NCBI RefSeq assembly: GCF_900167395.1
Contig: NZ_FUWK01000020.1
Location: forward strand, 14,327 to 46,326
Length of the DNA stretch: 32,000 nucleotides
Source: Nitrosomonas europaea
Lineage (GTDB): Bacteria; Pseudomonadota; Gammaproteobacteria; Burkholderiales; Nitrosomonadaceae
Direction of reading: 5' to 3'
The notes beneath the pieces were generated by a model. The model had not been told where the DNA came from. It did not search any database and worked only from the letters and a program-made list of their open reading frames with translations. A program made the position numbers and the translations under genes. The stretch's first letter is position 1; each line of letters opens with the position of its first letter. Shown here piece by piece: positions 12,562-17,890 of the stretch.

Positions 12562-12638
<77 letters not shown>

Positions 12639-13187: not shown

Positions 13188-13263
13188 TGGCTCCCCGACC
13201 AGGGCTCGAACCTGGGACCTGCGGATTAACAGTCCGTCGCTCTACCGACTGAGCTATCGGGGA
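13188..13263 (-). tRNA. tRNA-Asn (anticodon GTT)
   Basis: The reverse complement reads TCCCCGATAGCTCAGTCGGTAGAGCGACGGACTGTTAATCCGCAGGTCCCAGGTTCGAGCCCTGGTCGGGGAGCCA. It has a 7-bp acceptor stem, the anticodon loop CTGTTAA, a T-loop GGTTCGAGCC, and an encoded CCA. Confidence 0.95.
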
Positions 13264-14644: not shown

Positions 14645-16489
14645 ATGTATCCATTACTTGATCGCATTGAGATACCCGCACAGCTACGTACACTGAAACG
14701 CAATCAACTGCCGCAGTTAGCGGATGAATTACGTAATTTTCTGGTTGAATCCGTGGCAGGCACAGGCGGGCATTTATCTTCTAATCTCGGGACGGTCGAA
14801 CTGACCATTGCACTGCACTATGTGTTTGATACACCCTTTGATCGTCTGATCTGGGATGTCGGACATCAGACTTATGCTCATAAAATCCTCACTGGCCGGC
14901 GTACAGGAATGGCTCGTCTGCGCATGCAGGGAGGAATTGCCGGCTTTCCCAGACGGGATGAAAGCGAATACGATGCTTTTGGCACCGCACATTCCAGCAC
15001 CTCCATAAGTGCAGCACTCGGCATGGCAGTCGCCGCACGGCTCAAAGGCGTAAAGCAGCATGCAATTGCCGTGATTGGTGATGGTGCAATGAGTGCAGGT
15101 ATGGCTTTTGAAGCACTGAACAATGCCGGCGTAATGGATGCCAATCTGCTGGTTATTCTGAACGATAATGATATGTCCATTTCCCCTCCTGTAGGGGCGC
15201 TCAACAATTATCTGGCCAAACTGATGTCCGGTCGTTTCTATGCTACTGCCAGACGCGCAGGCGAGAAAATGCTGGGTGTGGTTCCTCCTGTTTTGGAGCT
15301 GGCAAAACGAGCCGAAGAACATGTCAAAGGTATGGTAACGCCCAGCACACTATTCGAAGAATTCGGCTTCAATTACATCGGTCCGATAGATGGTCACGAT
15401 CTGGATATCTTGCTGACCACGCTGAACAATATCAAGCAACTCGATGGCCCGCAGTTTCTACATGTCGTCACCCGTAAAGGCAAGGGTTATAAACAGGCAG
15501 AAGAAGATCCGATTCTCTACCATGGAGTCGGAAAATTTCAACCGGATCAGGGTATTGTATCGAAACCTTCTGCCAAACTGGCTTACACGCAGATATTCGG
15601 TGACTGGTTATGTGACATGGCAGCAAAAGATTCACGTCTGATTGGTATCACTCCTGCCATGAGAGAAGGCTCCGGACTCGTTCGTTTTTCGAAAGAGTAC
15701 CCGGATCGCTATTTCGATGTAGGGATCGCAGAGCAGCATGCCGTGACATTTGCCGCAGGTGCAGCTTGCGAAGGATTGAAACCGGTCGTGGCAATTTACT
15801 CGACCTTCCTGCAACGTGCTTACGATCAGCTGATCCACGATGTTGCCATTCAGAATCTGCCGGTTGTTTTTGCAATCGACCGTGCCGGGCTGGTGGGTGC
15901 AGATGGACCGACACATGCCGGCAGTTTCGATCTGAGTTACCTGCGCTGCATTCCCAATATTACGGTCATGACGCCCGCCGATGAAAACGAGTGCCGTCAG
16001 ATGCTCTACACTGCCTTCCAACTCGATACCCCTGCTGCCGTTCGCTATCCACGCGGCTCAGGTCCCGGTGTACAGATCCAGCAGGAAATGCAGACCATCC
16101 CGCTGGGTAAAGGTGAAATCCGCCGACAGGGTAAGCAGATTGCACTGCTGGCATTCGGCAGCATGCTGACCCCCTGTCTCGAAGCGGGAGATGAACTAGA
16201 TGCCACGGTAGTAAATATGCGTTTTGTCAAACCGTTGGATCAAGAGCTGGTTGCAACCCTTGCTGCCGAACATGAATTACTGGTTACCATTGAAGAAAAC
16301 ACCATCATGGGAGGCGCTGGCAGTGCAGTCATGGAAAGTCTTTCCAGTCTGGATAAAAACGTCAGACTGCTGCAACTCGGCTTGCCAGACAGCTTCATCG
16401 ATCAGGGTGATCCCGCACACATGCTATCCGACTGCGGACTGGATAAGGCCGGCATTATCCAGTCGATAAAAGAAAGGTTCTCTTTATAA
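14645..16489 (+). CDS. dxs: 1-deoxy-D-xylulose-5-phosphate synthase
   Basis: 614 aa. ThDP motif [18 protein letters not shown]...NDN, a transketolase-like pyrimidine-binding region and the C-terminal domains. Follows ispA. Confidence 0.97.
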
Positions 16490-16515
16490 TGTCACTAATG
16501 TCATACATCGCAGCG

Positions 16516-16948
16516 TTAGGCCGCTAGGGAGGCCATCGTGGATCTTGCGCAAAAATCAGATGCAGAAATCTTGGCTGTAGCGACTCCCATCATGGACAAC
16601 CTGATGGATGCTTCCACGGCTATCGACTACGAGCGTCATACTCGTGACTTCACGGAACGGGCCAGAAGTGTTCTGTCCGAAGAGTCGCTTCAGTCAATCT
16701 GCGAGCACTATCAAAGCACCAAAGGGTTCTTTGCCAAACGCGAATTTGTGGCAGCTTTCAGGCGCCCCGACTCTGTGGCTATCGTCTGGCGTCAGCAGTT
16801 CACTAAGCAACCGGGGGAGTTCGTAGCCGAGCTAATCTTGGTGCAACAAGGCGGCAAGTATCTCGTTGACCATGTGATGGTCTTCTAGTACGCGGCCTAA
16901 CAATTCATTCAAGCCGACACCGCTTCGCGGCGCGGCTGAATTCAGGCG
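16516..16948 (+). mobile_element. solitary integron gene cassette (one ORF plus attC) inserted at a secondary site
   Basis: The left junction reads gcagcG|TTAGGC (core GTTAGGC at 16515..16521). A single ORF follows. The inverse core GCCTAAC (16895..16901) lies 6 nt after the stop codon. The imperfect palindrome ends ...TTCAGGCG|ATAAAC, with the junction G at 16948. Joining right end to left end recreates a complete attC whose R'' GCCTAAC and R' GTTAGGC are exact inverse repeats. Confidence 0.7.
16538..16888 (+). CDS. cassette-borne hypothetical protein, 116 aa, function unknown
   Basis: GTG start preceded by GGGAGG (16527..16532) at a 5-nt spacing. The composition is protein-like and ends ...FVAELILVQQGGKYLVDHVMVF. 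I recognise no family. Confidence 0.7.
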   Translation: MDLAQKSDAEILAVATPIMDNLMDASTAIDYERHTRDFTERARSVLSEESLQSICEHYQSTKGFFAKREFVAAFRRPDSVAIVWRQQFTKQPGEFVAELILVQQGGKYLVDHVMVF

Positions 16949-16954
16949 ATAAAC
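16895..16954 (+). other. attC (59-base element) recombination site, aadA-type, with R' replaced by target DNA
   Basis: GCCTAACAATTCATTCAAGCCGACACCGCTTCGCGGCGCGGCTGAATTCAGGCG|ATAAAC. Internal pairing includes CCGC-TTC-GCGG and GCCG/CGGC. TTCAAGCC pairs with GGCTGAA with one extrahelical base. It differs at only a handful of positions from the aadA1 attC as I remember it (GTCTAACAATTCGTTCAAGCCGACGCCGCTTCGCGGCGCGGCTTAACTCAAGCGTTAGAT). Confidence 0.75.
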
Positions 16955-16981
16955 GACAACACTGACCGAATGTCGTTTTTC
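16951..16981 (+). terminator. candidate rho-independent terminator, probably the original dxs terminator now displaced by the cassette
   Basis: 8-bp stem AAACGACA/TGTCGTTT (16951..16958 and 16971..16978) with a 12-nt loop and a trailing T run. The stem is A/T-rich and the loop is long, so this is only moderate. Confidence 0.4.
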
Positions 16982-17083
16982 ACTGTCTGATTCAATGATC
17001 TCTCGTTACCCGGAATAGAGCGGGTATTCAAACGGCAATCAGCCGGCGTTGATCCTGGATCAGTTTTACAGGAAGGAGTTTTT

Positions 17084-17890
17084 ATGAACAAACAGATCGA
17101 TCTACCCATTGCTGATGTACAAGGCTCGTTGGACACAAGACATATTGCCATCGACAGAGTAGGAATCAAAGCGATCCGGCATCCTGTCGTGGTGGCAGAT
17201 AAAGGCGGTGGCTCCCAGCATACCGTGGCGCAATTCAATATGTACGTCAATCTGCCCCACAACTTCAAGGGAACCCACATGTCTCGCTTTGTCGAGATAC
17301 TGAACAGTCACGAGCGCGAGATTTCGGTCGAATCGTTCGAGGAAATCCTGCGTTCCATGGTCAGCAGACTGGAATCGGATTCCGGACATATCGAAATGGC
17401 CTTCCCTTACTTCATCAATAAATCTGCACCTGTCTCGGGTGTAAAAAGCCTGCTGGACTACGAAGTGACATTTATCGGTGAGATCAAACACGGCAATCAA
17501 TATAGTTTTACCATGAAGGTAATCGTCCCTGTTACCAGCCTGTGCCCCTGCTCCAAAAAAATATCCGACTACGGTGCACACAACCAGCGTTCACATGTCA
17601 CGATTTCGGTGCGTACCAATAGTTTCATCTGGATCGAGGACATCATCAGAATCGCGGAAGAGCAGGCCTCATGCGAACTGTACGGCCTGCTGAAACGCCC
17701 GGATGAAAAATATGTTACGGAAAGAGCTTACAACAATCCGAAATTTGTCGAAGATATCGTCCGCGATGTGGCCGAAGTACTCAACCACGATGACCGTATA
17801 GACGCCTATATCGTTGAATCAGAAAATTTCGAATCCATACACAACCACTCTGCCTACGCATTGATCGAACGAGACAAAAGAATACGATAA
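17084..17890 (+). CDS. folE2: GTP cyclohydrolase IB (FolE2 type)
   Basis: 268 aa. Typical FolE2 N-terminus ([23 protein letters not shown]), GTHMSRF and the Cys motif SLCPCSK. AGGAGT Shine-Dalgarno upstream. Confidence 0.92.

Follow-up and report, generated by a model that had tools for sequence, protein, structure and literature searches.

A solitary integron gene cassette between dxs and folE2 of Nitrosomonas europaea, probably placed at a G|AT site by an integron integrase

How did a small open reading frame (ORF), followed by a palindrome resembling an integron attC site, come to lie between two housekeeping genes of Nitrosomonas europaea? Upstream of it is dxs (1-deoxy-D-xylulose-5-phosphate synthase; 14645..16489, + strand), identified from the ORF list and from Pfam DXP_synthase_N and related domains, and downstream is folE2 (GTP cyclohydrolase IB; 17084..17890, + strand; Pfam GCHY-1). 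The gene order is xseB-ispA-dxs, cassette ORF, folE2, UPF0114, all on the + strand, and the genes around the cassette are housekeeping genes only within the window (the whole 32-kb stretch of DNA that was analyzed). Dxs, the ORF product and FolE2 are identical to CAD85072.1, CAD85073.1 and CAD85074.1 of N. europaea ATCC 19718, respectively, and many public assemblies contain contigs with an identical locus. An earlier note, made from the letters of this DNA, had proposed a solitary gene cassette caught at a secondary integration site. I conclude that an integron cassette was very probably (with a probability of roughly 0.9) inserted by an integron integrase at a non-integron G|AT site between dxs and folE2. 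The note had also placed this event inside a core isoprenoid operon, and here it was mistaken: folE2 is not an isoprenoid gene, and the insertion point lies 26 nt past the stop codon of dxs, the last gene of xseB-ispA-dxs.

An integron gene cassette is a compact element that starts at a TTRRRY half-core, has a short 5' UTR and usually carries one promoterless ORF. The unit described here (16516..16948, + strand) is 433 bp long, running from TTAGGC through a ribosome-binding site, the ORF and an attC site to CAGGCG, and it fits this layout, with a 16-nt leader that includes the ribosome-binding site and then a single ORF of 116 amino acids. The ribosome-binding site, GGGAGG (16527..16532, + strand), was read directly; it is carried by the cassette and lies 5 nt before the GTG start codon, and copies of the cassette in integron arrays have AAGGAG in its place. 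The ORF itself, taken from the ORF list, occupies 16538..16888 (+ strand), with its TAG stop codon at 16886-16888, and is the sole long ORF of the insert. The GC content is 54.0% in the cassette versus 50.7% in the window.

Both ends of the unit can be placed almost to the base. On the left, the core G|TTAGGC (16515..16521, + strand, read directly) joins the G of the target to the 5' end of the cassette, at the same boundary as in the related loci L085-L088; in the circular cassette, TTAGGC forms the right half of R'. On the right, the last cassette base is followed by the resumed target as G|AT (16948..16950, + strand), where the empty site has GCG|ATAAAC; after CAGGCG, which ends at 16948, the sequence is ATAAAC in place of TTAGGC. 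Together, 16515 and 16948-16950 define a target triplet 5'-G|AT-3'. The left half of the target (16490..16515, + strand) ends in GCAGCG, with G16515 as the G of G|WT, and the right half, which includes the folE2 leader (16949..17083, + strand), is colinear with the relative that carries the empty site. Because GCG precedes both junctions, the limits of the insert are uncertain by up to 3 nt (16513-16516 to 16945-16948), an ambiguity that is compatible with a crossover at G|TT. The 30-mers spanning the junctions of the filled site are CATCGCAGCGTTAGGCCGCTAGG and TTCAGGCGATAAACGACAAC. GTTAGGC is found twice in the 32 kb when both strands are counted, the two copies bracketing the cassette ORF, and 2.17 copies are expected; as this is the level of chance, the weight rests on the placement of the motif and on the attC evidence. 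The earlier note had located all of these landmarks correctly, namely GTTAGGC at 16515..16521, a single ORF, GCCTAAC at 16895..16901, a palindrome reaching 16948, and then ATAAAC.

An attC site is recognized as an imperfect inverted repeat in which R''-L''...L'-R' boxes are combined with an unpaired spacer and with bulged bases that are conserved. In the window, GCCTAAC begins 6 nt beyond the TAG stop codon, and an imperfect palindrome then extends to CAGGCG at 16948. The attC site (or 59-base element) encompasses 60 nt (16895..16954, + strand), as defined by a covariance model, by alignment to the sat2 and aadA1 attC sites and by folding. Its boxes, on the + strand, are R'' (16895-16901, GCCTAAC), L'' (16907-16917), a central stem-loop (16918-16932), L' (16933-16941) and a hybrid R' (16948-16954, G|ATAAAC).

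A scan of 16400-17100 against Rfam returned only a chance match of 12 bits, and Rfam does not include an attC family; I therefore built a dedicated attC covariance model. It was trained on 21 compact sites of several sequence families, taken from arrays in other organisms where homologues of the ORF are present, and including none from N. europaea, with an imposed architecture of 7 bp for R''/R', an unpaired spacer, and 8 bp with one bulge for L''/L'. To locate cassette ends, a strict GTTRRRY/RYYYAAC regular expression was replaced by a structure-aware finder, and then by the covariance model; the expression under-called these ends because many of them use GTTAGC(G/A). The pairs of the model are supported by covariation, with 89% of cells paired compared to 18-45% in slid controls, and with compensatory changes on both sides in 8 pairs (none of 500 shuffles scored as high). 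With filters off and both strands searched, the model identifies a single attC in the 32 kb, at 16895-16954 (+), with 54.1 bits and an E-value of 6.6e-11, and the runner-up is this same site on the opposite strand, at 10.8 bits. In 88 related loci, it identifies 120 sites, nearly all on the strand of the ORF and scoring 29-81 bits. The site in the window is thus an ordinary-scoring attC within the range of array sites, which bears out the initial reading of the palindrome.

The only base pairs that are broken in the window attC are three in R''/R', where TTAGGC is replaced by ATAAAC, which is what a hybrid R' should give, plus a single one in the L box. When the bottom strand is folded as it is, its 5' GTTTATC is unpaired. 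When R' is restored by circularization (GCCTAAC...CAGGCGTTAGGC), it takes on the R helix together with a spacer bubble and a bulged L stem, as in array attC sites. I also considered the A.C mismatch at 16919/16931 in the stem as a mark of attC decay, but rejected this, as the functional sat2 attC carries the same pair. The only lineage-specific changes are a T-to-G substitution at 16938 (in L') in the window, and a G-to-A substitution at 16922 in a second N. europaea genome (L098), where it is one of four substitutions in the cassette and weakens the attC stem. Such changes hint at relaxed constraint on the attC, but are far too few to prove it.

Comparison with known sites places this attC close to those of resistance cassettes. 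Its nearest counterpart is the sat2 attC of R721 (NC_002525), part of a dfrA1-sat2-aadA1 array, with 52 of the 54 cassette-derived bases identical, and 95% identity over the 60 nt. The similarity to the aadA1 attC, which the earlier note had pointed out, is real (48/54 identical in R721), but sat2 is closer. Sites of aadB, aadA16, catB8 and catB3 are 87-91% identical (blastn), and with the attC site as query, blastn matches the ends of class 1 and class 2 integron cassettes on over 5000 plasmids. The sat2 and aadA1 cassettes, of Tn7-type class 2 and class 1 integrons, share with the window the R''/L'' boxes, the bulges, and the central GC stem with its TTC loop, and the A.C mismatch is shared with sat2. 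They differ in that their cargo genes are unrelated to the ORF, in that N. europaea has the T-to-G change in L', and in that their R' is completed by the next cassette of the array (G|TTAAAC), whereas that of the window is completed by chromosomal DNA (G|ATAAAC).

The same ORF is found within true integrons. At L085 and L086, a copy with 92% identity occupies the first cassette position, beside an integron integrase that is oriented divergently from it (TIGR02249, 459 bits; cutoff 265). More than 12 further small ORFs come after this copy on the same strand, with attC sites between them. Arrays with a homologue of the ORF are also present at L087, L088 and L178-L181, in Nitrosomonas sp. Nm51 the ORF lies within an array, and an attC match is located directly 3' of the ORF in at least 23 of 80 metagenomic loci. 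The 5' boundary of the array copies, ...CAGGCG|TTAGGCCGCTA(A/G)GGAG...ATG, is in a register identical to that of the window from 16515. These sedentary chromosomal integron cassettes, with the GCCTAACAATTC(A/G)TTCAAGCCGA... attC family (for example the L085 "uncultured Luteimonas" type, L143 and L087), carry the same ORF family and share with the window the 5' boundary, the region of the ribosome-binding site and the R/L boxes, and in L085 the ORF is 92% identical at the amino acid level; unlike the window copy, they lie beside intI and possess complete R' cores. The nearest integron-borne copies have ∼85% DNA identity to the window, a dS of about 0.9, and an attC of ∼110 nt with a long central insert. 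This dS value and the longer attC center indicate that the actual donor is unsampled.

If the cassette was inserted, an uninterrupted target should exist in relatives. Using a FolE2 search and contig look-ups, I identified such a site in a sister lineage (L092 and L093), the closest relative found, whose FolE2 is 97% identical in amino acids and whose flanking DNA is 85-88% identical (∼13% diverged). Its dxs-folE2 spacer is uninterrupted and 156 nt long, while that of the window is 594 nt, and 161 nt are predicted when the 433 bp are subtracted. The 433-bp unit is missing in both L092 and L093, and homology to the window ends at 16489-16515 and restarts at 16946, breaking at both predicted junctions. 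The left flank is only partly alignable, with 4 nt missing and several substitutions just before GCG. The earlier note had predicted an empty site of the form ...GCAGCG|ATAAACGACAAC..., and the sister lineage indeed has ...TTGCG|ATAAACAAC..., that is, ...ATTGCG|ATAAACAACAAAACTGACCG... at this point. Over a longer stretch, this relative reads ...CATATTGCG|ATAAACAACAAAACTGACCGAAT... (aligned as ...AATGTCATCGCATATTGCG|ATAAACAACAAAACTGACCGAATATCG...), and the window without 16516-16948 reads ...CATCGCAGCG|ATAAACGACAACACTGACCGAAT... (aligned as ...AATGTCATACATCGCAGCG|ATAAACGACAACACTGACCGAATGTCG...). Target sites of the L092 type are GCGATAAAC and ATATTGCGATAAACAACAAA, and the 30-mer spanning the empty junction is CATCGCAGCGATAAACGACAAC. 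This empty allele is that of a sister lineage, rather than of a conspecific strain.

More broadly, dxs and folE2 are adjacent, with a spacer of 60-115 nt and no ORF between them, in at least about 45 betaproteobacterial genomes, including that of N. eutropha, which agrees with the expectation that relatives would show the empty arrangement. Among the matches listed, the spacers of genomes with a Dxs identity of 84% or less are not alignable to that of the window. Within the species, the cassette of L098 is 99.08% identical and its flanks 99.2-99.95% identical, both junctions are unchanged, and the two target halves (16490..16515 and 16949..17083) are 100% conserved. This identity and the unchanged junctions indicate one ancestral insertion, and the cassette is, on this sequence comparison, vertically inherited within N. 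europaea.

From these observations, a sequence of events can be proposed. The donor would probably be an environmental chromosomal integron whose arrays use the sat2/aadA/aadB-type attC family. A circular cassette, consisting of a single promoterless ORF and an attC of this type, 60 nt long, would have entered the chromosome of an N. europaea ancestor, where an integrase would have recombined the folded attC with 5'-GCG|ATAAAC-3', 26 nt downstream of dxs. A crossover of G|TT (attC) with G|AT (target) would yield the target G plus TTAGGC at the left junction, and the hybrid R' G|ATAAAC at the right one. The cassette would thereafter have persisted as a solitary attC ("SALIN"), passed on vertically. 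The enzyme responsible may have been the host's own IntI, or another. N. europaea reportedly encodes an active integron integrase at another place in the genome, in work attributed to Leon and Roy (2003). The host IntI is not known to possess a sizeable array. The present-day cassette would be a poor substrate for excision, because the left junction has no folded att site, and because the R' triplet GTT/AAC is now GAT/ATC.

Insertion of this kind is not without precedent. Francia et al. in 1993, Recchia, Stokes and Hall in 1994, and Recchia and Hall in 1995 are said to have described secondary-site insertion on plasmids, for example of aadB in RSF1010, giving pIE723. Common to the pIE723 type and to the window are the precise insertion of a single cassette, the 60-nt attC of the aadB/aadA family, the short GWTMW/GNT site, and the loss of the R' core at the right junction, hence the stability of the insertion. 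The window insertion differs in lying at a chromosomal housekeeping locus of a chemolithoautotroph and carrying non-resistance cargo, whereas the recipient of pIE723 was a broad-host-range plasmid. With its target G|AT, the insertion agrees with the 5'-GWT-3' consensus of attG sites (cut at G|W) that was derived from more than 3x10^5 IntI1-mediated insertions (Loot et al., 2024), and GATAA fits the older secondary-site consensus GWTMW/GNT (PMC4618277), as had been suggested for this locus. Of the additional attG motif CRGM, which lies on the right at +6 to +9, only 3 of 4 positions agree (CGAC).

Solitary cassettes were named SALINs by Loot et al. (2024), who counted 3,400 of them in 21,105 RefSeq genomes, and who reported expression of those located close to host promoters, and found cassettes inserted in the genome to be excised only occasionally, in a minority of clones. 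The window has the features of a SALIN: a single attC, no integrase or attI, a G|WT target, and an uninterrupted target allele in the sister lineage. As in the SALINs of Loot et al., there is one ORF and one attC, with no intI, attI or other attC near, the target is G|WT with hybrid junctions, the orientation permits host-driven expression, and the insertion is intergenic, sparing essential coding sequence. In contrast to the experimental E. coli insertions of these authors, it is natural, evidently old and fixed species-wide, a real empty allele survives in a sister lineage, and CRGM is matched at 3/4 positions, compared to their hotspots.

The window was also searched for other traces of mobile elements. 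The earlier note had seen no intI, attI or second cassette in it, and this stands: tblastn with IntI found no IntI-like sequence in the 32 kb (best E-value 0.13), no attI was found in the window, and the attC is the only one. No transposase was found nearby, nor terminal inverted repeats, nor a target-site duplication beyond the shared G/GCG. In N. eutropha (L096), a tyrosine recombinase beside xseB was considered as an integron integrase and rejected, as its TIGR02249 score of 34 bits is far below the cutoff (265); the enzyme is the integrase of a tRNA-associated island, and no remnant of it is present in the window.

Could the cassette have arrived at this place by other means? Entry by a route other than an integron integrase, either by homologous recombination from a relative carrying it or through another recombinase or transposase, is very unlikely. 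The filled locus could move between N. europaea strains by homologous recombination, and the enzyme is not observable from sequence; however, homologous recombination moves an existing insertion and does not create one, the breakpoints match to the base the cassette boundaries of an integrase crossover (G|TT) with a G|AT target, and none of the hallmarks of transposition listed above was found. I regard as less likely again that the cassette is the last remnant of a decayed chromosomal integron or array between dxs and folE2, whose integrase, attI and other cassettes were deleted. A degraded integron or CALIN has at least two clustered attC sites, or an adjacent intI pseudogene or attI remnant; the locus has one attC, no intI-like sequence, and colinear flanks. 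Half of the integrase-less attC clusters are thought in the literature to stem from integron decay or rearrangement, and the array of Nitrosomonas Nm51 would be in line with such an origin. Against it, the contiguous spacer of the sister lineage matches both flanks up to G|AT, the adjacency of dxs and folE2 with a short spacer is ancestral across the at least about 45 betaproteobacteria, the left junction does not represent a leftover attI or attC, with no attC match upstream, and the R' core is swapped for target sequence exactly at G|. The empty site therefore largely refutes decay.

The direction of transfer could also be reversed, with the ORF native to this locus and the attC gained in situ, for example through a group IIC-attC intron, making N. 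europaea the source of the cassette. N. europaea does possess such an intron, N.e.I1, and these introns have been proposed to aid cassette formation. I find this scenario scarcely credible, since among the genomes listed the ORF is missing at this locus in all other Nitrosomonadaceae, the empty-site relative lacks the ORF, the ribosome-binding site and the 5' boundary together with the attC, and sat2, a resistance cassette with no relation to this one, has an attC that is 96% identical. The gene family, moreover, shows much greater diversity outside Nitrosomonas, dS between cassette-borne copies reaching about 2.5, a pattern opposite to that of an N. europaea origin. As for the palindrome being a terminator or REP-like hairpin after an orphan gene, with the core motifs present by chance, the frequency of GTTAGGC (2 versus 2.17 expected) and the lack of an Rfam family match would allow it, but its probability is practically negligible, given a 54-bit match (E-value 7e-11) to an independent attC model, the identity to the sat2 attC, the absence of a T-run after the hairpin, and the attC sites found 3' of the same ORF in many arrays. 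Insertion of a circular cassette by an integron integrase is therefore the reading that I retain.

Homologues of the 116-aa cargo protein are detectable in large number (639), many of them 75-93% identical and in unrelated Proteobacteria, including Xanthomonas, Luteimonas, Halothiobacillus, Comamonas, Acidovorax, Alicycliphilus and Nitrosomonas sp. Nm51. Between the window ORF and array or cassette-borne copies, dN/dS is 0.04-0.10, and the ORF is thus a real gene under constraint, on which purifying selection acts. No family was found for the protein in Pfam, NCBIfam, PHROGs or a PDB sequence search, and one source labels it DUF4440. An AlphaFold model (pLDDT 80.7) shows three or four N-terminal helices on a curved, 4-stranded sheet, and Foldseek returns weak but consistent NTF2-like matches (E-values of about 2e-3 to 2e-2, TM 0.45-0.57), suggesting that the cargo may be a small NTF2-like protein.

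The cassette reads in the direction of dxs and folE2. Promoter and terminator predictions gave nothing significant at the locus; the stretch from dxs to folE2 contains no terminator-like site, and the dxs stop codon is overlapped by a weak promoter-like one. A hairpin at 16948-16981 was considered as a dxs terminator and rejected, because it is weak (-9.2 kcal/mol, z -1.5) and is not conserved in L092. The ORF is probably transcribed by read-through from host promoters, and translated from its own ribosome-binding site. Its locus name, NE1162, was not found in the searchable literature.

Since secondary-site insertion was established in the 1990s, and attG sites and SALINs in 2024, the locus is a further, well-documented natural instance of an already described process, and involves no new mechanism or type of element. 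Solitary attC sites were formerly discarded in the literature as possible false positives, and have been explained experimentally only recently (Loot et al., 2024). The locus provides a rare natural before-and-after pair, N. europaea supplying the filled site and a sister lineage the intact G|AT target. It also illustrates that a near-sat2/aadA attC circulates with non-resistance cargo in environmental Proteobacteria, including wastewater nitrifiers. For annotation, it implies that NE1162 is a horizontally acquired integron cassette gene, and not a native member of the dxs neighborhood. It is conceivable, though rather unlikely, that the cassette has become a domesticated gene, a promoterless NTF2-like ORF within the read-through of xseB-ispA-dxs and immediately 5' of folE2, fixed species-wide and kept by selection. 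If so, this would be a natural and datable case of an integron integrase, perhaps the host IntI, seeding a core-genome locus with a retained gene, and the surviving empty allele would make an experimental reconstruction of the event possible.

The cassette ORF of N. europaea begins with a GTG start codon, at position 16538 of the window, and ATG occupies the same codon in most of the array copies; GTG is also found in the copies of Nitrosomonas sp. Nm51 and of the environmental array L143. Upstream, 25 nt from the cassette, a sigma-70-like element (TCGATA-16 nt-TATAAT, 16463-16490) lies across the stop codon of dxs. This element could drive the cassette and folE2; it is the sole promoter-like match within 16300-17200, a number not above chance expectation. 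On the other side of the cassette, an inverted repeat (GATAAACGACA / TGTCGTTTTTC, 16948-16981) has its first base precisely at the point of insertion. With -9.2 kcal/mol and a z of -1.5 the repeat is weak, and the empty-site relative does not conserve it; a role as dxs terminator is therefore doubtful.

In the window, a gap of ∼1 kb between the NUDIX gene and xseB houses genes for tRNA-Met (12562-12638, + strand) and tRNA-Asn (13188-13263, - strand). Since N. eutropha possesses a phage-type, non-integron tyrosine recombinase at the corresponding place (L096:1-472), this suggests a hotspot for the insertion of tRNA-linked islands, lying a few kb 5' of the cassette. The region 3' of folE2 is likewise variable: in a Nitrosomonas relative (L094:4882-7173; also L095), the interval from folE2 to the UPF0114 gene contains an insertion of cstA and a small Sel_put gene, both encoded on the opposite strand.

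Homologues of the cassette ORF (74-83% amino acid identity) are also found solitary amid housekeeping genes, at loci L089 (10001-10351), L090, L091 (10001-10351), L115, L116, L120, L121, L126 and L127. No attC match was found at any of these solitary loci, and their flanks are unrelated. These homologues may be native to their loci, or may represent cassettes that lost their attC and were then domesticated.

Among the arrays, the metagenomic array L136 possesses three attC sites of equal score (1857-1915, 2177-2235 and 2497-2555), spaced at intervals of exactly 320 nt, a pattern that resembles one small cassette triplicated in tandem.

Finally, the attC of the sat2 cassette of plasmid R721 (L182:1201-1260) has 52 of 54 bases in common with that of the N. 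europaea cassette, and the central stem of this clinical, class 2-type cassette's attC carries the identical A.C mismatch. Through this match, the attC type of a resistance cassette is linked with arrays from the environment, among them L085, L087 and L143.
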